Assembly: GCA_034530615.2 (NCBI GenBank)
Contig: JAVRCV020000068.1
Coordinates: forward strand, 79,393-143,392
Length of the DNA stretch: 64,000 nucleotides
DNA from: Aulosira sp. ZfuVER01
GTDB lineage: Bacteria > Cyanobacteriota > Cyanobacteriia > Cyanobacteriales > Nostocaceae
Reading direction: 5' to 3'
Under the pieces are notes generated by a model. That model made no database searches and was not told where the DNA came from. It saw only the letters and a program-made list of their open reading frames with translations. Both the position numbers and the translations under genes were made by a program. Of the stretch, positions 2,952-64,000 are shown one piece after another (the stretch's first letter is position 1; every line of letters starts with the position of its first letter).

Positions 2952-5167
2952 ATGAATAATCTTAACATAATCTTGCAATTAATTTCCCTTTTTTGGCCTT
3001 CGATATTTCTTTTAATTTTGATTATAGCTTTTACTATATATCCTTTTTATCATATAAGAACGAAAAAGATAGATTCTTATATTAGGGATATAAGAAAATT
3101 TACATTAGCTTTTATTAATAACACTATTGAATTAGCAACAATTATTATAGTTATTATTTTGTCGATAAGGCTATTGTTTAGCATATTCAATAATGAGTTT
3201 TTTTTAGATATAGTTAGAATTATAAAAAAAGACGAAATAAGTGTATTATTTAACTATATTGTAAATCTTTTACAGGTTATATGCATTATATTTTTACTGG
3301 GAACTATAGTTTTATTTTTAAGGTGGTTATCTAGTAAAGCCAAAGGTACAGTAATTCTTCCATTTGAGGATACAACAAACGAAAAATTTGGAAAAAAAGT
3401 CGGACAAGCAATTAGTGATTCTCTATCCTCCGAACTCCACCGAATTTGGCAAATTTATGTAAGTTATTCAGATATTCTTGAGCGTGAAGAAGAGTTTATA
3501 AGGCTTGAAACACAAAACCTGTTCTATCCTTCTCCAATAAGTTCTAATCAAGAACAACTTATAAATCAATTAGTTAATGTTGGAACTTTAGAGTATGGTA
3601 AGACAAAATTTTCTATAGGTGCGTTACTTTTAATATTAAAATATTTATGGCCTTTCGGTGGAGTAGAACGCTTAATTACAGGAAGTATACAAGCATTGGG
3701 TTCAAAGATTCGTTTAGTAGTTAAATTAGAATCTGGTAATGAAATAAAAATATGGGAAGTAACCCACGAAAATGTAGAGAATGGGTTATTCCCTGAAATA
3801 ATAAGAGAGCTTGCTTACAAACTTAGCCAATTTTTAATATCTAATAATCAACAAAGCTCATGGAAAGCATTTAAAAATTATACTGAAGCTATTTCTAAGT
3901 TTAATGAATATCGGACAAATAAAGACTTTTATAAATTAACGCAACAGTTTGCCGAACTAAATGAATTGTGTATAAATAACTCTTTGAAACAACTTGAAGA
4001 ATCATTAGGATATTGTTTGCAAGCTATAAATCATGACGTTTATAATCCGGATATTTCAGTTTTTATGTATTATCTTGGAGCTTCTTATATTGAAGTAGGA
4101 AAGCTTGATATTGCAAAAAAATTATTCACTTATGCTATGAAAATTGATAAAATATATATTTCTACATTGGTCTTGCAAATGTATACTTAAAACAAGAAAA
4201 ATATAATTATGCTAGCGAGTATTATGAATACGTTAAGGGGAAAGATGATAAATTACCTTATTCCTATAACGGGCTTGGAATTATATATGCCATAAAGGGA
4301 GAGTATATTAAAGCGCTTGATTATTATAATGAAGCTATAAAGCGAAAGGAAAATTTTTGGAAACCTTATCATAATAGAGCCATCCTATTATTATATCATT
4401 TTTCACACAATAATAAAGCTAGAATGATTGCAAGAATAGATATTGGGCAAGCCAAATCACATTCAAGATATAAAAATGCAGCACCTTATTCTGCACTAGG
4501 TTTAATAAATTTTCATGATGCAATTGAAAATAAATTTTCAAATAATGAAGGACAAATTGAATTAACAGAAGAAGGAAAAAAATTATTAACAGCGGCACGA
4601 TTAGAAATACAACAGGCTATAAATATTGAATATGAACCTTCTTATTATCCTGAATATTATTGGAATTTGGGCTTAATATTACTTTGGCAATGCAACTTAG
4701 AAGAAACTTATAATGCTTGGCAAAAGGCTTTCAGTTTTGCATTAAAATATAAAGAGAATGAAATTTGTAAAACTGTTTATGAATATGCTTTAAATATTTT
4801 AAATAATAAAAATACGACAGAGTCATCTAATACTTTTAATTATAAAGAATATTTGAGCAAAATTCAGACTCGTCTAAATGAAGCAGGACAATCATCTAAA
4901 ACCGGACGTATTGAAATGATGCTAGACGATCTTTACACAATTCAAGAAGCCGCAAATATTTGGAATAAAAAGCAATTATTGAACTTGGAAGAATTGGGAA
5001 AGATTATTGAAGTTTTTAAGGATAAAATTGGTAAGCATACAAAACCTCAAAATAATAACGAAGATAAATCTAAGGAGAATGATAGCAAGGTAGATAAGCT
5101 TTTAGATAAACTGTATTCAAGCTATTCTCATAAGGGGATGACAAATCAGATACAGCACACAAAATAG
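2952..5167 (+). pseudogene. Membrane-anchored TPR protein split by a frameshift near 4150-4161
   Basis: ORF 2952-4190 has N-terminal TM helices. The frame of ORF 4424-5167 is open back to about 4157 and reads as TPR repeats (YIGLANVYLKQEKY..YNGLGIIYAIKGEY). AT-rich. Confidence 0.7.
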
Positions 5168-14905: not shown

Positions 14906-15997
14906 TTACTGGCATTCTTCTGGTGATGGTGTTTTTGGCAAAGATACAGTGGTGTTTTGTAAATTCTCTCGCAATAGCACTTTCAGTCGTTGATTATCTT
15001 CAGCAGCGATCGTTTCACCGTAGTGATGTTGCTGAAATAATTGGCAATAACGGTTTTGTTTAGCACAAATTAAACAACCGTAGGCATTATTACCATTTGC
15101 ACCGCATAGCCGATGTCCCATCACCGGGCCCAAGGAAATATTTTGCTCACTTGCAACTGTATTCAGGATGGAACGTAGCCGTGCTTCAAACTCCATTGAT
15201 AAAAACAGCTTACTTCCTGGTTTTGTACGATCCCATTGCGGCACAATTAATCCCTGTTTTAACAAACTCTCTTCAATTTCAGCTGACATAACAATGTTAG
15301 AGAGAATTACATGGTGGGTAACATTAGGCAAAAGTTTCCTTGCCAATTGCCACATTAAAGTCTCATCAAACCACTGTTCAACTAGAGGACGAAGATACCA
15401 ACAACAGGGAATGCCAAGGTTGACTAAATCTTGTAGCAGTTGTACTCGTCCCTGAATAGAGGCTTGCTCATATCCTGGTTTTAATGGTGGTAGACTAACA
15501 AAAACTGTGACTCGTAGGGAATTCGGTTGAGCTAAAGTAGCTTTGAGGCGCTCTAGAAATGATTTACCAGGGTGGACTTTGGTTGTAATGTAGACCATAT
15601 TCGCTGCTTGACGGTCAATCAGTGCATTCAAAATTGACAGTACACGTTCTCGATGCGCTGGGATAAAGGGATCGGAGTAGTCGCATAGAGAAATTGGAAA
15701 GCCATTTTGTCCCTCTGGAGTAGCAAAAATGCAGTCTAACAACCGATCGAGCAAGTCAGATGGAGCTAAAGTATTCTCAAAATTTTCTGGATGATGATGC
15801 CAGTCACGGTCTTGATGGCAGACACAATAAGCACATTCAACTGGACAACGGTTCAGGGTATTGGGTAGAAATGGATTCAGACTGAAGTATTTAACTGCAC
15901 GTTCTCGATCGGGAATTCCCAGTACAGGAAAGCCATGTAGCATATACTGACTCCCCTGTAATGAAACTTCAGACAGAGTAGATTGATAATTTGCCAT
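14906..15997 (-). CDS. Radical SAM superfamily protein
   Basis: CPVECAYC (CxxxCxxC) motif; SDPF and ITTK elements; extra C-terminal Cys cluster. Confidence 0.75.
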   Translation of the reverse strand: MANYQSTLSEVSLQGSQYMLHGFPVLGIPDRERAVKYFSLNPFLPNTLNRCPVECAYCVCHQDRDWHHHPENFENTLAPSDLLDRLLDCIFATPEGQNGFPISLCDYSDPFIPAHRERVLSILNALIDRQAANMVYITTKVHPGKSFLERLKATLAQPNSLRVTVFVSLPPLKPGYEQASIQGRVQLLQDLVNLGIPCCWYLRPLVEQWFDETLMWQLARKLLPNVTHHVILSNIVMSAEIEESLLKQGLIVPQWDRTKPGSKLFLSMEFEARLRSILNTVASEQNISLGPVMGHRLCGANGNNAYGCLICAKQNRYCQLFQQHHYGETIAAEDNQRLKVLLRENLQNTTVSLPKTPSPEECQ

Positions 15998-16216
15998 AAC
16001 CCTTTAACCATTAATCCATCTACGAAAAATCGCTTACATTAGGGTGGCTGGTGTAAATCTGGAGTGGCAATGATAGAAATACTTGAAAATCATCATTAAC
16101 TATTGCTTAAGAAATCAAAAATACTGAGGTATTATTGCTTATCCTCCAACGTAAATTCAAGTTCCAGGCTGGTAAAAATACAGCTGCCGAAAATTCAACT
16201 GTCAGGCGATCGCAAC

Positions 16217-16855
16217 TTACAAATATAAGGATTGAACAGCCAGATCCTTTAAGGTAATGGTAAAGTTACGCTGCTCTTGTGTAGCAATGAATGCGATAGT
16301 TGCCTCACACGCCACAGCAACAGTTAACATCACCAAATTTCGCGCTAGAGGATAATCACAGACATCATCATTGACATCAGAAGGAACGCGATAAACATCA
16401 TTCCAAATTACTTCTGCATAATCGGCTGCTAGTCCAACATGAAGGCAGGGAATTTTTGAACGATCGGCATAATCTTTCACTGCTTGACGTGACAAGCTGT
16501 TGTCAAAAACATCAATAATTAACTGGCTATCTTGAAGTAGTTGATCTGCATTTGCTGATGTCAACTCCTTTGTTTTGGCATCAACTTTAGTACCAATTGC
16601 TCGGTATAAATTATTTGCTAGGATTTTCGCCTTAATTGCTCCAACATCGGAACGGTAGTAAGGCTGGGTAGAAAGGTTACGTTCCTCAATGCGATCGCGA
16701 TCGATTACCGTAAGTTTATCAAAACCAGACCGAGCCAAGTTTTCTGCAATGTTAGCTCCTAACGCTCCAGCCCCACAAATGGTTATAGGATAATTCTTGA
16801 GCTTTGCCATCACAGCATTGCTGCGGTAAAGCTGTTCGTGAAAAAAAATACTCAT
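16217..16855 (-). CDS. ThiF/E1-like adenylyltransferase
   Basis: GAGALG, DRDRIEERNLSTQ, KAK, DVFDN motifs. Start placed at MSIFF, 5 nt after the upstream stop. Confidence 0.9.
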   Translation of the reverse strand: MSIFFHEQLYRSNAVMAKLKNYPITICGAGALGANIAENLARSGFDKLTVIDRDRIEERNLSTQPYYRSDVGAIKAKILANNLYRAIGTKVDAKTKELTSANADQLLQDSQLIIDVFDNSLSRQAVKDYADRSKIPCLHVGLAADYAEVIWNDVYRVPSDVNDDVCDYPLARNLVMLTVAVACEATIAFIATQEQRNFTITLKDLAVQSLYL

Positions 16856-16860
16856 TGTCC

Positions 16861-17694
16861 TTACCACTCTTGTTGTTCCATCACAGCCACTAAAGATTGC
16901 AAATCAAAATCGCGATCGCGTCCACTCAAGCAAATCCCAGAACTAATTACAGTCAAATCAGATTTAGCGATCGCACTAGTGTGGCGAACACCATCAGCCG
17001 TTCTCCAATCCACTGTCCAGTAATCACCGCGATCGTGAAATTGGCGTAATTCACCGCCACCCATTCGCAATGCTTTTCTTAGCCGTTTTTCATCCTGTTG
17101 CGGTTGTGCAAATCCCTCAATCCGCTGAGTTGCTAATTCATACAATGTCCGGATTTCTGGAGTAATCCCTTTGAACTGTAATTCCTCAGCAGGAGTCAGT
17201 TGCTTAACAGCAGATTGCAGAGTTTCCACAATTGCTGGATCGGTACGGCGATCGATTTCCTCAAACCAGCAGGATTGTCCATTCCAACGAGCGATAACTT
17301 GCTCAAAAACAACACCCTCAGTTACTAGATGTACTGCGATCGGTTTGACTACCTTCAACCGTTGACGCATATCTACTTCATTCACAGGATATGCTAACCA
17401 AGTTTGTCCTCGCAGTTGGTGTGCTAATCTCAGCCGTATTTGGGGAAAGTGTTGCAAGTATTCTGCAATTTGGGGTAAGTCTGCTTCTTCCACAACTGTT
17501 GCTGTCTTCGTATCGACTGGCTGAAAGATACCCCAACCTTCAAATTGATTATGCTTTGGCGTAAAGGTGTAAACCATCCCAGCTACTCGTGTGCGAACTC
17601 GTCCACCTTTGACACAAGGGGCGATAAATTGAGTTGCACACAACTGTGCTTCTGCACTAGCAATTTGGTTGATTAGCTTACGGATGTCAGTCAT
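16861..17694 (-). CDS. Hypothetical protein, C-terminal SGICLSG (possible E2-like Cys)
   Basis: 277-aa ORF tightly coupled to the ThiF gene; family not recognised. Confidence 0.75.
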   Translation of the reverse strand: MTDIRKLINQIASAEAQLCATQFIAPCVKGGRVRTRVAGMVYTFTPKHNQFEGWGIFQPVDTKTATVVEEADLPQIAEYLQHFPQIRLRLAHQLRGQTWLAYPVNEVDMRQRLKVVKPIAVHLVTEGVVFEQVIARWNGQSCWFEEIDRRTDPAIVETLQSAVKQLTPAEELQFKGITPEIRTLYELATQRIEGFAQPQQDEKRLRKALRMGGGELRQFHDRGDYWTVDWRTADGVRHTSAIAKSDLTVISSGICLSGRDRDFDLQSLVAVMEQQEW

Positions 17695-17765: not shown

Positions 17766-17975
17766 TCCCGCGTGCAAGTTGGTGGAGCATTGCGTGTTCT
17801 CAGTTACTAGGGGGACTCCGCTGGTGAGTTGTTACACACTCTTTCAAAGATGGCTACTTTTAAGCCCATTTTCCAGGTTCTTCGCACTCCCCGTTCACAC
17901 ACGCCCACTGTATTTGACAGTGTTACTTTTCCTCTCGTACTAGTATGTAGGCTCCAAGAGTTAGGGCACGCAGGA
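17766..17975 (-). ncRNA. Scaffold RNA A: carries sarcin-ricin-loop mimic and 23S H42-44 mimic
   Basis: Terminal stem UCCUGCGUGC/GCACGCGGGA; CCUAAC/AACUU loop; CUAGUACGAGAGGA at 17943-17930; 56-nt GTPase-centre-like segment at 17876-17821. Confidence 0.85.
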
Positions 17976-19610: not shown

Positions 19611-21185
<1,575 letters not shown>

Positions 21186-21301: not shown

Positions 21302-21702
<401 letters not shown>

Positions 21703-21731
21703 AGTTTACTCATAATTGATAAAGAATAAAA

Positions 21732-21861
<130 letters not shown>

Positions 21862-21866
21862 AAACT

Positions 21867-22653
<787 letters not shown>

Positions 22654-22716: not shown

Positions 22717-22860
22717 AATTCCGCACAAGTTAGCAAAGCAGTTTTCACAATTGCCTTTACCATTTTGGCTACGCTCCCATATAAGGGAGCGACAGGAATC
22801 GAACCTGCATATCCTTTCACAGATAGTGTGTGTATGCTTCACAAGTTAGGGCGCGGAATT
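22717..22860 (-). ncRNA. Scaffold RNA D: circularly permuted tRNA cargo (YrlA-like topology)
   Basis: Order is T arm GCAGG-UUCGAUU-CCUGU, loop-closed acceptor CGCUCCC-UUAUAU-GGGAGCG, UA, D arm GCCAAAAUGGUAAAGGC. Confidence 0.85.
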
Positions 22861-22876
22861 AAATCTTAAATGTTTA

Positions 22877-23055
22877 CCATGCAAGTTCAAGAAGCTTTTT
22901 ACAACTACGGTCGCTCTTACCAAATATTGGCAGTGGGCACGCACGCTAAATCTGCAAGAGACTTAGAAATCATGCTTCGCTGGTTCGATCGCTCGAATTT
23001 TACTACCTTAGGGCCGTTATCAATGTGTATGTATGCTTCTTGTGTTAGGGCACGG
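22877..23055 (-). ncRNA. Scaffold RNA E: permuted 23S rRNA H67-H71 (H69) mimic cargo
   Basis: AUAACGGCCCUAAGGUAGUAAAAUUC at 23020-22995 and GGUAAGAGCGACCGUAGUUGUAA near the 3' side, inside the scaffold arms. Confidence 0.8.
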
Positions 23056-23068
23056 ATGATTAGGCGTA

Positions 23069-23284
<216 letters not shown>

Positions 23285-23339
23285 TTAAATTACGAATGGC
23301 TTTCTTAATTTTGAATTTTGAATTTTGAATTGGGATTAG

Positions 23340-23548
23340 TGGATCTGATCGGGATTGAACCGATACCCTCCCTGTGAGAGTTGCACTCACACCTCATGCG
23401 AGTTGAAAAAGCTGTGGTAACACACGCAGGAATCGCACCTGCACTTATCGTTTAAAAAGCGATCGCTCTACTATTGAGCAAGTATGTAAGCTTCTTCTGT
23501 TAGGGCACAAGTGAAATCCGGGATCTCTACCGTTAGAGCTACAGACCC
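23340..23548 (-). ncRNA. tRNA-like shell with its anticodon loop replaced by scaffold RNA F
   Basis: Acceptor GGGUCUG/CAGAUCC-A, D arm GCUC-UAACGGUA-GAGA, T arm AUCGG-UUCAAUC-CCGAU. Confidence 0.75.
23393..23511 (-). ncRNA. Scaffold RNA F: tRNA-Lys(UUU)-like cloverleaf cargo
   Basis: CUUGUGC/GCAUGAG stem, CCUAAC/AACUC; D arm GCUC-AAUAGUA-GAGC; anticodon loop UUUUUAA; T arm GCAGG-UGCGAUU-CCUGC; internal ACCA. Confidence 0.8.
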
Positions 23549-23611
23549 AAGTTTGCATGATTGCTCTGCTCTGATTGCAGTCATTGCAACTTCAATCAAA
23601 GTCAAAGCAAG

Positions 23612-23692
23612 TGGAGCCGTCGGGAATTGAACCCGACTCCTGCAACCGTCCGTTTGTTGGTTTCGGAGCAGTCGAACGCCAATCGCGGCCCC
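23612..23692 (-). ncRNA. Minimal tmRNA tRNA-like domain (no tag ORF)
   Basis: GGGGCCG..UGGCGUUCGAC 5' end; GGAGUCGGG-UUCAAUU-CCCGA-CGGCUCC-A 3' end; G3.U70; stemless D loop. Confidence 0.75.
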
Positions 23693-23807
23693 AAAAGTGG
23701 GCAGTGCCTATGAGAGTTGTTAAGCTTCACTCTCAAACAGTGGCATCTATGCAGTTGTCACAGTTATGAGAGGTTGTAGTTTTGCCTCTTGAGGAGGCTT
23801 TTTTGTT

Positions 23808-23860
23808 GATACTACATTTGTAATACAAAAGCTACATGATGTCAAGGGGATACTACAAAA
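23808..23860 (-). promoter_or_regulatory. Candidate promoter/operator of the RNA-array operon
   Basis: TTGACA at 23845-23840 flanked by two TGTAGTATC copies (23857-23849, 23816-23808); -10 assignment uncertain. Confidence 0.45.
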
Positions 23861-24054
23861 TTTTTTGAGAATGCTTGTATTCCCTGCACAGTCTAAGGTA
23901 GAGCGTGGAGATATGTACTACACTGTTCTATAGCTTGTAGACAACAAACTCTGCGCGATCGCTCAAAAAGAGCAACAACCACTGGACGAATTATTCGACT
24001 ACAAGGCGAACAAGTCGGGAAACCCGATCCCGTTTCTAGCGTTGTTATAAAAAC

Positions 24055-24264
24055 TCAATCGTCTAACAAACTCATCAATGCTTGCACTTCGTGGTCTTGC
24101 GACTCGGATAACTTATGCCGTAATTCTAATATTTGATTTTCTATGGATTGCGCCGTATAGGCCATATTAGATTTTTGTGCAATTTTTAATTGATTTTCTT
24201 TAACTCTGATTTTCCTCAGCAATTCATTGACATGAGAAATCGGCTCATAATCTTGAAAAATCAT
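24055..24264 (-). CDS. Small coiled-coil hypothetical protein
   Basis: 69-aa helical ORF with AGGGT SD-like sequence. Confidence 0.6.
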   Translation of the reverse strand: MIFQDYEPISHVNELLRKIRVKENQLKIAQKSNMAYTAQSIENQILELRHKLSESQDHEVQALMSLLDD

Positions 24265-26748: not shown

Positions 26749-27402
26749 CTACCTGTTCTCCGAAGGTGCTGGGCGATCGCCTTCACCTGGAGGATGAGGC
26801 GGAACACCAAGTGCATCTTTTAATTGTTGTTCAGTCACACCTAGCTTTGTCGCTGCTGCTTTAAAATCAGGGCGAGGTGGACGTTGATTGCGATCGCCTT
26901 CACCTGGAGGATTAGCCGGTACACCCAGCGCATCTTTTAACTTTTGTTCAGTCACACCTAGCTTTGTCGCTGCTGCTTTAAAATCAGGGCGAGGTGGACG
27001 TTGATTGCGATCGCCTTCACCTGGAGGATTAGCCGGTACACCCAGCGCATCTTTTAACTTTTGTTCAGTCACACCTAGCTTTGTCGCTGCTGCTTTAAAA
27101 TCAGGGCGAGGTGGACGCTGACTTCTGTCACCCTGACTTGGAGGATTAGCAGGTACTCCTAGTGCATCTTTTAACTGTTGTTCAGTCACACCCAGTTTCG
27201 CCGCAGCTGCTGCAAAATCAGGATGATGTGGTCGCCGCTGTCTGTCTTGTCCATTCTCTGGTTGGTTAGGCTGTTGTGAAGCCTGGGCAATGCGATGAGA
27301 TGGATTAGCAGCATTTACCTGATTCAGGGAAATCAAACCAAATGTGCCAGTTAGAACGGAAATTGCTGTTACGACCACTGCTTTATTAATATTCATGTTC
27401 AT
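26749..27402 (-). CDS. Exported protein with about four 39-aa repeats
   Basis: Signal peptide; RPPRPDFKAAATKLGVTEQKLKDALGVPANPPGEGDRNQ repeats (117-nt unit). Confidence 0.85.
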   Translation of the reverse strand: MNMNINKAVVVTAISVLTGTFGLISLNQVNAANPSHRIAQASQQPNQPENGQDRQRRPHHPDFAAAAAKLGVTEQQLKDALGVPANPPSQGDRSQRPPRPDFKAAATKLGVTEQKLKDALGVPANPPGEGDRNQRPPRPDFKAAATKLGVTEQKLKDALGVPANPPGEGDRNQRPPRPDFKAAATKLGVTEQQLKDALGVPPHPPGEGDRPAPSENR

Positions 27403-61433: not shown

Positions 61434-64000
61434 ATGGCGCGTGTTAGCTATGGTGATGAAGTCGAAGCGCGGGTAAGAAAACTTTTAGAAAGGTTTTTGG
61501 CTTATGTAAATGACGAGTTAGAAGACAGTGAACTGTATAAAATTGCCCTCAACTGGGAAACTCCGCAGCAAGTAATAGTAAGAACACAGCTAAGAGTTCT
61601 GGCAGAACTTAGCGGTTTAAGCAAAGAACAAGTCCGAGAAGCATTAAATGCACTCAAAGATTTTGTAGAAATTCGCGAAGATTTGCGCGAACACAAGCGA
61701 GGTTCAGAAGATTGGCACTTTCGGCTGAAGCTTTGGCATGATAAAAGCGACAAACACGGGAATTTGCAAAAATTTCATGCAGAATGGCAACGCCGACGAG
61801 AAGAATTACCTGGTGTGCAGCGTGGAAAAGGTAAAAAAACTCAACCCACGCCTACCCGTTACGAAAATATTCCCTGGAGTGGGGTAACAAAGTTTGTTGG
61901 AAGAGAAACGGAATTACAAAACCTCCATCAGCTGTTGCAGAAAAATCAGCAGGTAGCGATCGCAGCTATTGCGGGGATGGGTGGAGTCGGGAAAACAGAA
62001 CTAGCACTGCAATATGCGAATTTGCACCGCGTCACTTATCAAGGCGGAATTTGCTGGTTGTCTGCATTACAGGATGTGGGGGTGCAATTGGTGCAGTTTG
62101 CTGTTACTAAACTGCAATTGAACATCTCAGATAATTTAGATTTAATTGGGAGAGTGCAACACTGTCTAGAAAAATGGCATCAGGGTGAAGTTTTACTGGT
62201 AATTGATAACGTCACTAACTATCGAGAGGAAGTTAGGTGTTATTTAGAGTCTGTTCCTTCTCGGTTTAAGCAGTTAATTACCACCCGAGAAAAATTACAG
62301 CCGCCAATAGTGCGATTAGATTTAGATGTGCTGACACCACTAGCGGCAATGCAGTTATTAAAATCTATTATTGGTAGGGAACGACTGCGGCGTGAGGCGT
62401 TAGTTGCGAGAAAACTTTGTAAGTGGCTGGGATATTTACCCTTGGGTTTGGAATTAGTCGGGCGTTATTTGTTAGGTGATGAGGAATTATCCCTAGCAGA
62501 AATGCTGCAAGACTTAGAAAATGAGCGTTTAAAGCATGAGGCTTTAGAACAAGTTCCCCAAGAAATGACTGCTAAGTTGGGTGTCGCTGCTGCTTTTGAG
62601 TTAAGCTGGCGACGGTTGCGAGAAAATGCTCAACGTTTAGGCTGTCTTATGAGTTTATTTGCCCTAGCTCCGATTCCTTGGGAGTTGGTGGAGCATATAA
62701 CAATAAATAATGCGGCTCAAGATTGGAAAAAAGCTAGACGAGATTTGTTACAGTTACACTTACTTCAGTCCAAAGGTGAGGGAATCTATCAACTACATCC
62801 CCTGCTGCGGGATTTTTTCCAAGATAAGCTTACAGGTTTAGAAAAGACAGAGGAATTTAAGCGAAGTTTTTGCGGGGTAATGGTAGCAGTTGCTAAAAAT
62901 ATTCCTGACACTCCCACAATTCAGCAAATTCAGGATGTCGCCCCCGCCATACCTCATATAGCTGAAGTAGCAAACAATCTCATTCGGTATGTTAGCGATG
63001 ATGATTTAATTTGGGCTTTTGTTGGCAACGCTTTTTTTTATAAGGGTCAAGGATTGTATGATAAAGCAGCACCTTGGTATGAGCGGTGTCTAGTAGCTAC
63101 TAAAAAGCGATTGGGAAAAGAACATCCATCTGTTGCGGCTAGCCTCAACAACCTCGCAGGACTCTACCGTTCCCAAGGTAAATACAGTGAAGCCGAACCT
63201 CTGTACATCGAAGCTTTGGCACTGACGCGTAAACTGCTGGGCGAAGAACATTCAAATGTCGCAACTAGCCTCAACAACCTCGCCTTACTCTACCAATCCC
63301 AAGGCAGATACAGCGAAGCCGAACCTCTGTACATCGAAGCTTTGGCACTGACGCGTAAACTGCTGGGCGAAGAACATTCAAATGTCGCAACTAGCCTCAA
63401 CAACCTCGCAGAACTCTACAAATTCCAAGGCAGATACAGCGAAGCCGAACCTTTGCACATCGAAGCTTTGGCACTGAAGCGTAAATTGCTGGGCGAAGAA
63501 CATCCCCATATCGCACAAAGCCTCAACAACCTCGCAGTACTCTACTACCATCAAGGCAAATACAGCGAAGCCGAACCTTTGCACATCGAAGCTTTGGCAC
63601 TGAAGCGTAAATTGCTGGGCGAAGAACATCCCGATGTCGCAGCTAGCCTCAACAACCTCGCAGCACTCTACAAATCCCAAGGCAGATACAGCGAAGCCGA
63701 ACCTTTGTACATCCAAGCTTTGTCACTGACGCGTAAACTGTTGGGTGAAGAACATTCAAATATCGCAGCTAGCCTCAACAATCTCGCAGGACTCTACCGT
63801 TCCCAAGGCAGATACAGCGAAGCCGAACCTTTGTACATCCAAGCTTTGGCACTGTGGCGTAAACTCCTGGGCGAAGAACATTCAAATGTCGCAACTAGCC
63901 TCAACAACCTCGCAGGACTTTACGAATCCCAAGGAAAATACAGCCAAGCCGAACCTTTGTACATCCAAGCTTTGGCACTGTGGCGTAAACTCCTGGGCGA
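61434..64000 (+). CDS. NB-ARC (STAND) NTPase with 42-aa TPR repeats (runs off window)
   Basis: ATG 61434; GMGGVGKT, LLVIDNV, GYLPLGL; 126-nt repeats ATSLNNLA.LY.SQGRYSEAEPLYIEAL. Confidence 0.92.
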   Translation, partial: MARVSYGDEVEARVRKLLERFLAYVNDELEDSELYKIALNWETPQQVIVRTQLRVLAELSGLSKEQVREALNALKDFVEIREDLREHKRGSEDWHFRLKLWHDKSDKHGNLQKFHAEWQRRREELPGVQRGKGKKTQPTPTRYENIPWSGVTKFVGRETELQNLHQLLQKNQQVAIAAIAGMGGVGKTELALQYANLHRVTYQGGICWLSALQDVGVQLVQFAVTKLQLNISDNLDLIGRVQHCLEKWHQGEVLLVIDNVTNYREEVRCYLESVPSRFKQLITTREKLQPPIVRLDLDVLTPLAAMQLLKSIIGRERLRREALVARKLCKWLGYLPLGLELVGRYLLGDEELSLAEMLQDLENERLKHEALEQVPQEMTAKLGVAAAFELSWRRLRENAQRLGCLMSLFALAPIPWELVEHITINNAAQDWKKARRDLLQLHLLQSKGEGIYQLHPLLRDFFQDKLTGLEKTEEFKRSFCGVMVAVAKNIPDTPTIQQIQDVAPAIPHIAEVANNLIRYVSDDDLIWAFVGNAFFYKGQGLYDKAAPWYERCLVATKKRLGKEHPSVAASLNNLAGLYRSQGKYSEAEPLYIEALALTRKLLGEEHSNVATSLNNLALLYQSQGRYSEAEPLYIEALALTRKLLGEEHSNVATSLNNLAELYKFQGRYSEAEPLHIEALALKRKLLGEEHPHIAQSLNNLAVLYYHQGKYSEAEPLHIEALALKRKLLGEEHPDVAASLNNLAALYKSQGRYSEAEPLYIQALSLTRKLLGEEHSNIAASLNNLAGLYRSQGRYSEAEPLYIQALALWRKLLGEEHSNVATSLNNLAGLYESQGKYSQAEPLYIQALALWRKLLG

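Follow-up and report, generated by a model that had tools for sequence, protein, structure and literature searches.

Analysis of a 64,000-nucleotide (nt) stretch of the cyanobacterium Aulosira sp. ZfuVER01 (GenBank assembly GCA_034530615.2, contig JAVRCV020000068.1, positions 79,393 to 143,392 of the forward strand), here called the window, revealed on its minus strand at 23340..23548 a 209-nt nested RNA that consists of an outer tRNA-like shell, a unit of a structured RNA family that we call F, and an inner cloverleaf carried by that unit. We propose, at odds slightly better than even (about 0.55), that this element is a two-headed member of a Y-RNA-like family that docks a Ro60-like protein and presents its two heads as baits or tethers. 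The occurrence of F in all 34 genomes that carry the full-length gene for a divergent Ro60-like protein, together with a sibling unit of YrlA type and the modular build of the units, led us to regard F as a Y-RNA-like family that would partner a divergent Ro60; because its platform contains neither GNCGAAN0-1G nor CGAA, we did not file it under YrlA. This context, in which the neighboring gene probably encodes a cryptic Ro60 homolog and the F units are its probable partner RNAs, was absent from a preliminary description of the element.

Read 5′ to 3′, the shell begins with the acceptor strand GGGUCUG (23548-23542), continues after U/A with a D arm that has GG in its loop (23539-23524), and closes its 5′ half (23520..23548) with the strand UCCC of an anticodon-type stem (23523-23520). 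A degenerate 7-nt loop, GAUUUCA (23511..23517), is left beside the insert and overlaps the start of the helix extension. The 5′ side of the F unit (23489..23512) comprises the helix extension and a 4-base-pair (bp) basal helix (23512-23505), the internal-loop strand CCUAACA (23504-23498) and one strand of helix 2 (23497-23489), and leads into the inner cloverleaf (23415..23488), which ARAGORN called as tRNA-Lys(UUU), with the anticodon at 23456-23454, and which scored 51.1 bits against the Rfam tRNA model (gathering score 29). The 3′ side of the unit (23391..23419) consists of a 6-nt bulge, UACCAC (23419-23414), the second strand of helix 2 (23413-23405), the internal-loop strand AACUC (23404-23400) and the basal helix with its extension (23399-23391). 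An extra hairpin, GUGAG-UGCAACU-CUCAC, present as letters at 23390-23374, precedes the 3′ half of the shell (23340..23372), in which the strand GGGA (23372-23369) and a four-base variable region are followed by a T arm with a canonical loop, AUCGG-UUCAAUC-CCGAU (23364-23348), the acceptor strand CAGAUCC (23347-23341), which pairs with GGGUCUG, and an unpaired discriminator A at 23340, after which CCA is not encoded. The ARAGORN and Rfam calls agreed with these positions, and the shell, scaffold F, inner cloverleaf and extra hairpin of the preliminary description are therefore correct in coordinates and anatomy.

The insert of approximately 138 nt lies at the 3′ edge of GAUUUCA. Of 133 variants with the insert deleted in silico, ARAGORN called 16 as a tRNA whose ends coincide exactly with the outer G1 and the outer 3′ end and whose anticodon loop is GAUUUCA, which supports the earlier suggestion that F was inserted into a former tRNA gene. 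That the shell is instead an interrupted tRNA gene from which the insert is spliced to leave a working outer tRNA is scarcely credible: the frame is tRNA-like and the insert sits in the anticodon-loop region, but the insert belongs to a conserved family in its own right, an Rfam scan of it yielded no group I intron or other intron family at the gathering score or at E values up to 10 (which bears out the earlier statement that no group I intron is recognizable), the intron mode of ARAGORN called nothing, and the remnant of the loop, with A at position 33, differs from relative to relative, measuring 6 nt in one of them. Apart from the tRNA match of the inner cloverleaf, no other Rfam family fitted the insert either.

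The F family to which the insert belongs was recognized by a 5′ motif, GUGCCCUAAC-N5-6-AGCUUACAUAC, which has five copies in the window and a sixth at another place in the genome, always on one strand; the units end with ...AGCUU-N-AACUUGCAC. Each unit has a terminal helix of 10-11 bp, built of an extension such as UCACUUC/GAAGUGA and of GYGC/GYRC, then an internal loop, CCUAAC(N)/AACUU, a helix 2 of 8-9 bp, and a variable apical module that may be a cloverleaf, a permuted YrlA-type tRNA mimic or a 23S rRNA look-alike. The platform consensus reads GYGCCCYAAC ... AACUUGYRC. Among 43 distinct units from 25 loci, 171 of 172 cells of the basal helix were standard pairs, and its second pair was C-G in 22 units, U-A in 17 and U.G in 4. 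From 59 distinct units of this size, 47 of cloverleaf type were aligned (ten with apical parts other than plain cloverleaves and two near-duplicate nested units were left out), and the RNAalifold consensus contained 29 pairs, 17 of them with compensatory change, predicting the terminal helix, helix 2 and the D, anticodon and T stems. The inner acceptor stem was not predicted in this alignment; its 5′ strand is invariant and its 3′ strand only partly complementary.

The protein that the platform would dock is encoded 2.3 kb downstream of the nested RNA, on the same strand (19611..21044), and has 477 amino acids (aa); its open reading frame (ORF) remains open back to 21179, with 21044 the probable start, as in database relatives. 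Pfam recognized only a C-terminal vWA domain, and public names for the family, whose closest named members come from Nostoc and other cyanobacteria, are 'vWA domain-containing' or 'hypothetical'; 3174 relatives were found at E values up to 0.001 among the 7999 candidates scored. A phmmer search of the Protein Data Bank (PDB) matched residues 71-440 to Ro60 of the Thermus phage phiLo (E 1e-4), a protein described in the available part of its source (PMC12135203). An AlphaFold2 model built from a 14-sequence alignment showed approximately 19 helices followed by an alpha/beta domain, and when this model was searched against the PDB with Foldseek the top 11 matches were all Ro60 structures (human, Xenopus, Deinococcus Rsr and phage; E 1.5e-6 to 1e-4) spanning about 500 columns, while the next-best match had an E value of approximately 0.015. 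The Pfam family vWA_Ro60 matched two of six family members (E 0.0025). These results suggest that the neighbor is probably a cryptic, distant Ro60 homolog, and if so a widespread cyanobacterial 'vWA/hypothetical' protein is exposed as a Ro60 with candidate partner RNAs. F adjoins a gene of the Ro60/Rsr type (TROVE + vWA), an assignment made by distant homology and a modest model.

Genome-wide co-occurrence of F and this gene was analyzed in the window's own genome and in 60 relatives from its order, 61 genomes in all, which represent 23 genera and are not independent. The full-length gene was present in 34 genomes; of the others, one had an 85-aa fragment and one matched only a vWA paralog. 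When up to one mismatch was allowed, the 5′ motif of F was found in 34 of the 34 gene-bearing genomes, mostly on the same contig and adjoining the gene, compared with 3 of the 27 genomes without the full-length gene, each with a single one-mismatch match, and a reversed-pattern control gave 2 matches in the 61 genomes. Several F copies lie upstream of the homologous gene in the relatives' loci, and at three of these (L037, L043 and L045) several units follow one another without an intervening ORF. In viral contigs the motif gave one chance match, without a Ro60 gene or F structure.

The nested form itself was analyzed in 32 sources, the window and 31 relatives' loci, setting aside one 101-nt fragment. 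Both halves of the shell flank a Lys-type F unit at approximately 185-nt spacing in 15 of these sources. In a sixteenth, from the same genus (L030, 2225-3520), the halves are 1.36 kb apart because an insertion sequence (IS) with a 303-aa transposase-like ORF has entered the inner D loop. The 16 shell-bearing sources are 13 genomes of the window's genus and one genome each from three other genera, so that the 15 intact nested RNAs span four genera; two more genomes of the window's genus, interrupted by contig ends, fall outside the count. A comparison of orthologous loci for shells without the insert, which had been proposed as a check on the shell's origin, turned up none. Shell-less F units, including Lys-type ones, exist among distant genera, from which it follows that the shell was added later to a type of unit already present.

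The 15 intact elements had a mean pairwise identity of 0.93, compared with 0.62 for the upstream and 0.40 for the downstream 60-nt flank. These identities and the recurrence of both shell halves around an F unit show that the arrangement is no coincidence. The contrast with the flanks bears on whether the shell is a decaying, functionless relic of the insertion of F into a tRNA gene. The insert does sit at the edge of the 7-nt loop of a recognizable tRNA frame, the loop remnant is not conserved (GAUUUCA in the window, GAUGUCA in most relatives), and one genome tolerates an IS within the element, but both halves are 93% identical across 15 loci and four genera while the flanks fall to 40-62%, and one outer stem shows a compensatory change; we regard a relic as improbable to a high degree.

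A hand-built model of 60 pairs was compared with the same 15 sequences. Its helices are the outer acceptor, D and anticodon-type stems, the helix extension, basal helix and helix 2, the inner acceptor, D, anticodon and T stems, the extra hairpin and the outer T arm. In this model 99.1% of cells were paired, compared with 32-51% when partners were slid by 1-3 columns. Compensatory change occurred at three pairs, one each in the outer UCCC/GGGA stem, the basal helix and the inner anticodon stem; the last pair of the outer stem, for example, is C-G in 10 orthologs, U.G in 4 and U-A in 1. The remaining shell pairs never vary, so that the case for the acceptor, D and T arms of the shell is one of conservation and resemblance to tRNA and not of covariation. 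The outer D loop GG and the canonical T loop are kept throughout, the T arm and acceptor are invariant apart from one T-loop base, and the stem of the extra hairpin is invariant in 15 of 15, while in its loop a single column varies between C and U. The consensus that RNAalifold derived from the 15 orthologs retains helix 2, the inner arms and, in the shell, the acceptor, D and T arms.

The shell is conserved at its acceptor end. G1-C72, G2-C71, G3.U70 and A73 are invariant in all 15 orthologs, and elsewhere in the genome G3.U70 is found in the tRNA-Ala genes. G3.U70 with A73 is the alanine identity set. Among candidate parent tRNAs for the shell, Ala-UGC scored 48 of 64, Lys-UUU 47 and Ala-GGC 46. 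No tRNA of the genome was a clear winner, and a local match of the 5′ half to tRNA-Lys(UUU) is therefore not diagnostic of the parent.

The inner anticodon columns are the most variable of the entire nested RNA, while the loop frame Y-U-NNN-A/G-A is kept. The 15 orthologs carry eight inner anticodons (CUA in six, GCA and UCU in two each, and UUU, AGU, UGA, UCA and AUG in one each), and UUU occurs only in the window. The preliminary description had stressed the UUU anticodon as a target of nucleases such as PrrC; because the triplet is not conserved, a specific link to PrrC and tRNA-Lys is not supported. An internal ACCA does follow the inner acceptor strand, as had also been pointed out, but it forms part of a bulge of 5-7 nt whose sequence is different in the sibling unit and in other genera. 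Turnover of the anticodon in an otherwise frozen cloverleaf is what an arms race or relaxed decoding would be expected to produce, and it may reflect drift at an unconstrained triplet or diversifying selection. We also observed that the inner D loop (approximately 23469-23475, minus strand) has AG rather than GG in the window's genus and that the inner T loop (approximately 23431-23437, minus strand) has G rather than U at its second position, whereas an ortholog from another genus (g3) has GG and U; this may represent a linked change at the tRNA elbow.

Across all sources, the 51 ARAGORN calls embedded in F units comprise 20 anticodons on one acceptor sequence, including the stop-reading CUA and UCA, which makes it very unlikely, judged from the letters, that F-embedded cloverleaves are decoding tRNAs. 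Nor do we see much room for the more specific proposal that the inner cloverleaf is a true tRNA precursor, cut out for translation as a spare tRNA and in some species a suppressor, which we hold to be extremely improbable. Good ARAGORN and Rfam scores speak for it, as does the proximity of tRNA arrays: the sixth F unit (L005, G000:C32 about 181000-181200) sits between tRNA genes of a long array, and in two relatives (L037, 1-3100; L057, 1100-4100) the F cluster and the Ro60-like gene are immediately preceded by arrays in which 13 and 30 tRNAs were called. The inner cloverleaf thus passes tRNA models but does not combine a conserved anticodon with a matched acceptor; moreover, its 1-72 pair is U.U in the window, its acceptor runs on into helix 2, and the consensus of the 47 units lacks a predicted acceptor stem. 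Annotators now call F cloverleaves tRNA genes, including 'suppressor', 'Pyl' and 'SeC', probably wrongly.

Several results weigh against the proposal of a two-headed Y-RNA-like RNA. On the protein side, Pfam TROVE was never matched in the 477-aa family, a 6-sequence profile matched phage Ro60 in the PDB more weakly (E 0.58) than the single sequence did, and the structural model is mediocre, with TM-scores to Ro60 of 0.37-0.43, a predicted local distance difference test (pLDDT) score of 65.7 and a predicted TM-score (pTM) of 0.37. On the RNA side, the F platform lacks GNCGAAN0-1G / CGAA, the Ro60-binding strand of known bacterial Y RNAs in the available text of PMC4201824 and PMC12135203; F units without a shell occur in 16 of the 32 sources, all from more distant genera; and the IS within the nested RNA of one genome indicates that the element is dispensable at least there. 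Of the 60 model pairs, 57 show no double change, so that most shell pairs carry no covariation signal, and the intron mode of ARAGORN gave no call on the shell even at a relaxed threshold. The minimum free energy (MFE) fold of the window sequence (-68.2 kcal/mol, z approximately -2.9 versus shuffles) is more stable than the model (-56.3 kcal/mol) and differs from it around the outer anticodon and T region, where it pairs GGAUU with the outer T-arm region; this helix is impossible in most relatives because they have G where the window has U. The consensus of the 15 orthologs also swaps the basal helix for a local hairpin, ACUCGCAU/GUGUGAGU, a predicted structure that may be a competing alternative fold to the extra hairpin and basal helix. 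Finally, a scan of 23200-24100 for promoters of the sigma-70 type found none, and the RNA-library contigs that cover the locus come from relatives, show neither ends nor strand and could include DNA. A TTGACA-17-TACAAA arrangement picked out by eye near 23845-23815 was rejected as a promoter since it fails the scan rule.

In the proposed particle, the F platform, consisting of the covarying terminal helix, the internal loop and helix 2, would bind the divergent Ro60/TROVE-vWA protein. The apical module of the nested RNA is a full cloverleaf whose acceptor end is closed by helix 2 and whose anticodon is free to vary, and the base of the platform, free-ended in the siblings, continues into a second tRNA-like module without an anticodon loop; with the cloverleaf on top and the shell at the base, the docking helix would thus be sandwiched between two tRNA mimics. 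As the only module with free tRNA-type ends, the outer one would allow RNase P and RNase Z to excise the nested RNA from a polycistronic precursor that runs from a domain resembling transfer-messenger RNA (tmRNA) through the nested RNA, small ORFs and F units to an L7/L12 paralog and Ro60, and the shell would confer tRNA-like stability on the product. On the Ro60 ring, both heads would then bait or tether factors that bind tRNA, the role proposed for the tRNA-like domain of YrlA.

It is also conceivable, if unlikely, that the shell is a processing and stability cassette only, in which RNase P and RNase Z sites release and protect the F unit and no bait role exists. The free tRNA-type ends without encoded CCA, the ARAGORN tRNA obtained from the insert-deleted shell and the shell-less units of half the sources would fit such a cassette, as would the YrlA of M. 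smegmatis, which is cut by RNase P and given CCA according to the available part of PMC4201824. Against this, siblings in the same transcript do without a cassette, and the invariance of G3.U70/A73, the D loop GG and the T loop in 15 of 15 orthologs is more constraint than cleavage sites need.

Four sibling F units occupy the same strand of the window and illustrate the range of apical modules. F3 (22723-22854) is a permuted tRNA mimic with the YrlA order of T arm, closed acceptor hairpin and D arm, and it contains a weak match to Rfam YrlA at 22753-22809 (23.1 bits, gathering score 69). A Leu(UAA)-type cloverleaf recognized by ARAGORN and the Rfam tRNA model forms the unit at 21739-21854; among close relatives its anticodon is UAA, UAG, UGA, UAU, GAU or GAA. 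The Leu-type and CUA/UCA forms would be annotated as tRNA-Leu, Ile, Ser, 'Pyl' or 'SeC', and some relatives, represented by the RNA-library contig X5 and a unit of L037 (oriented 4323-4484), have an insertion of 30-60 nt in the T loop of the Leu-type unit (21779/21780). F2 (22879-23053) carries an apical 26-nt stretch that is identical at 24 of 26 positions to the 23S rRNA of a relative (G003), with a score of 37 versus a shuffle maximum of 29; Rfam large-subunit (LSU) models did not match F2, and from its offset to the sarcin-ricin-type loop we would place the stretch roughly in the region of helices 69-71.

The sibling F0 (17772-17969, minus strand) contains 23S rRNA look-alike modules. Its segment 17821-17876 corresponds to positions 1093-1148 of Rfam LSU_rRNA_bacteria, structure included (36.8 bits, E 1.6e-9), a region that we take to be the L11-binding GTPase center, and F0 is identical to the 23S rRNA of G003 at 36 of 45 positions. 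It also carries CUAGUACGAGAGGA, presumably a sarcin-ricin loop, whose 12-nt core AGUACGAGAGGA occurs nowhere else in the assembly, which itself lacks rRNA operons. The AGUACGAGAGGA core is present in the 23S rRNA of G003, and the 18-nt motif that was searched has one mismatch, at the first base of the stretch. The imitation of two 23S rRNA sites by F0 may be more remarkable than the nested RNA itself.

A further tRNA-like element, a tmRNA-type domain without a message part, lies 60 nt upstream of the nested RNA (23609-23692, minus strand). It scored 43.8 bits against Rfam tmRNA (gathering score 47), matching the ends only, with 24 nt in place of the 316-nt body, and its acceptor has the same G3.U70 as the shell of the nested RNA. 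A normal tmRNA is encoded on another contig of the genome. By fuzzy search the domain was found in the window and in 3 of the 20 relatives' loci scanned first (L027, L028 and L032).

The variety of these modules raises a bolder reading, which we offer tentatively and consider rather doubtful, in which a particle for surveillance or for use as a decoy is encoded here, with a Ro60-type ring that displays look-alikes of the RNA sites of the translation machinery attacked by ribotoxic nucleases. Its tRNA panel would comprise anticodon loops with a rapidly changing triplet and the acceptor/elbow and tmRNA-type domain with alanine identity, and its ribosomal panel the GTPase-center region, the sarcin-ricin-type loop, the further 23S segment and the L7/L12 paralog; the nested RNA would present both tRNA ends together. 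A mimic that is cut or captured would either sequester the attacker or raise an alarm. A response to attacks on translation would be in keeping with the physical linkage of the F locus to tRNA arrays. Long arrays are reported to be induced under translational stress in Anabaena (PMC8421152, the available text of which does not mention the F locus).

Whichever role the heads have, the two-headed Y-RNA-like RNA proposed here would be made as part of a longer transcript with several minus-strand ORFs. The nearest, of 66 aa (23069-23269), starts 60 nt downstream of the nested RNA and ends ...VYG in many relatives. It is followed by a 239-aa ORF of no known family (21867-22586), for which the nearest ESM-Atlas clusters are hypothetical, with more than half of their classified members from phage (scores 0.94-0.95, no more than a lead). 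The L7/L12 ribosomal protein paralog (21302-21694; NCBIfam L12, 105 bits) immediately follows an F unit and precedes the Ro60-like gene, and a second L7/L12 copy, presumably the canonical one, with 50% identity, is encoded on contig C48.

These ORFs bear on the possibility that the nested RNA is a cis-acting leader that controls translation through binding of the Ro60-like or a ribosomal protein, similar to the rRNA-mimicking leaders of ribosomal protein genes. Every F unit in the window precedes an ORF (the 66-aa and 239-aa ORFs, the L7/L12 paralog and a 277-aa ORF), a hairpin with ..GCAACUC.. followed by GGAGG recurs between units and start codons, and F0 imitates a ribosomal-protein binding region of 23S rRNA. 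Nevertheless, the consecutive units at L037, L043 and L045, the F copy inside a tRNA array and the GGGAGGG stretch of the shell, after which no start codon follows, make a leader quite unlikely.

Sequences from RNA libraries are consistent with transcription of the F locus as a polycistron. The RNA runs yielded contigs of relatives only, at shares of 0.05-0.10, and uncovered parts are uninformative. One metatranscriptome contig of 655 nt from a relative (X2 record 12) covers 23338-23698 without a break and differs at 31 positions, spanning the shell, the insert and the upstream tmRNA-type domain, and a contig from the transcriptome of another organism (X5 record 14, 2542 nt, depth 260) extends piecewise from 23422 to 21600, that is, from inside the nested RNA over the ORFs and sibling units into the L7/L12 paralog. 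The reading in the preliminary description depends on co-transcription of the two outer halves; the first of these contigs spans both and supports this weakly, given that DNA carry-over is possible and ends are not shown.

Other features of the window were noted in passing. Downstream of F0 (14906-17694, minus strand) lie the 277-aa ORF, a ThiF-type E1 and a 363-aa ORF without a family match. PADLOC matched only the ThiF-type E1, to E1-E2 models (E 4e-17), the 277-aa ORF had no match in the PDB and belongs to no known family, and a ubiquitin-like conjugation module, in view of these ORFs and the 66-aa ORF, is a possibility. Hairpins of the form GAGU...(A/G)CAACUC recur on the minus strand before the tmRNA-type domain (23714-23732), inside the nested RNA (23374-23390), before the L7/L12 paralog (21696-21711) and in the 23S-like part of F0 (17826-17841); 6 matches to GAGU-N3-12-AACUC versus 3.7 expected indicate no enrichment over the window as a whole. 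Tandem repeats of 126 nt, in at least 7 copies running off the window, occupy 62986-64000, and repeats of 117 nt at 26773-27234 lie inside an ORF (26749-27402) for a repetitive, secreted-looking protein.

Comparison of F with published RNAs placed it closest to the bacterial Y RNAs without identifying it among them. A full-text literature search, which extended neither to the supplements of PMC4201824 nor to the review PMC10870794, found no F family, no rRNA-like Y RNA modules and no nested tRNA-like Y RNA. In the available text of Chen et al. 2014 (PMC4201824) and Wang et al. 2018 (10.1101/312249), YrlA is laid out as T arm, closed acceptor hairpin and D arm, and the binding partners of bacterial Y RNA tRNA-like modules are still unknown; few YrlA RNAs were found in cyanobacteria (Chen et al. 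2014). Like YrlA as described there, F adjoins a Ro60-type gene and is modular, joining a predicted protein-docking helix to a tRNA-like module, with several paralogs per locus, and the sibling F3 has the YrlA layout itself. In contrast, the docking helix of F has another sequence, without GNCGAAN0-1G / CGAA, and its protein is so divergent that its annotation is only vWA or hypothetical. The nested RNA departs further from YrlA, with which Rfam (RF02553) found no match on 23340-23548: it carries tRNA-like modules at both ends of the docking helix, its inner module is unpermuted and keeps the full anticodon arm that YrlA lacks, and its outer module is open-ended, which YrlA is not. The YrlA of M. 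smegmatis, as far as the available part of PMC4201824 describes it, provides a precedent for processing, in that tRNA-processing enzymes handle its tRNA-like module with a 7-bp acceptor, but there the cut opens a closed acceptor hairpin, whereas the acceptor of the nested RNA is already open, at its ends.

The nested RNA also resembles tmRNA. Its shell has a G3.U70/A73 acceptor and a T arm, its halves are parted by a long structured insert that replaces the anticodon arm, and a tmRNA-type tRNA-like domain lies directly upstream. Unlike tmRNA, it has neither a tag reading frame nor pseudoknots, it has a real D stem, and its insert is an F unit. The tmRNA mode of ARAGORN gave no call on the nested RNA, and the sole Rfam tmRNA match is to the distinct domain that lies upstream.

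Cyanobacterial tRNA genes with group I introns exist, and the nested RNA shares with them an insert in the anticodon-loop region of a tRNA frame. Its insert, in contrast, is 138 nt long, belongs to F and matches no intron, and the shell shows neither a recognizable intron nor, after removal of the insert, a canonical loop; the tRNA-Leu(UAA)-like element in the window is an F cloverleaf and not an intron host.

In engineered tRNA scaffolds, a foreign structured RNA is placed in the anticodon stem of a tRNA and is processed and stabilized by the cell. The nested RNA likewise holds a structured cargo in the position of the anticodon stem, with the difference that it is natural and conserved and that its cargo is a predicted docking RNA with a second tRNA mimic, so that it would represent a natural version of the tRNA-scaffold design. 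More broadly, the F family supplies natural variants of such modules, permuted and unpermuted, open-ended, with and without an anticodon arm, and rRNA-like, which could make the binding of Y RNA modules testable.

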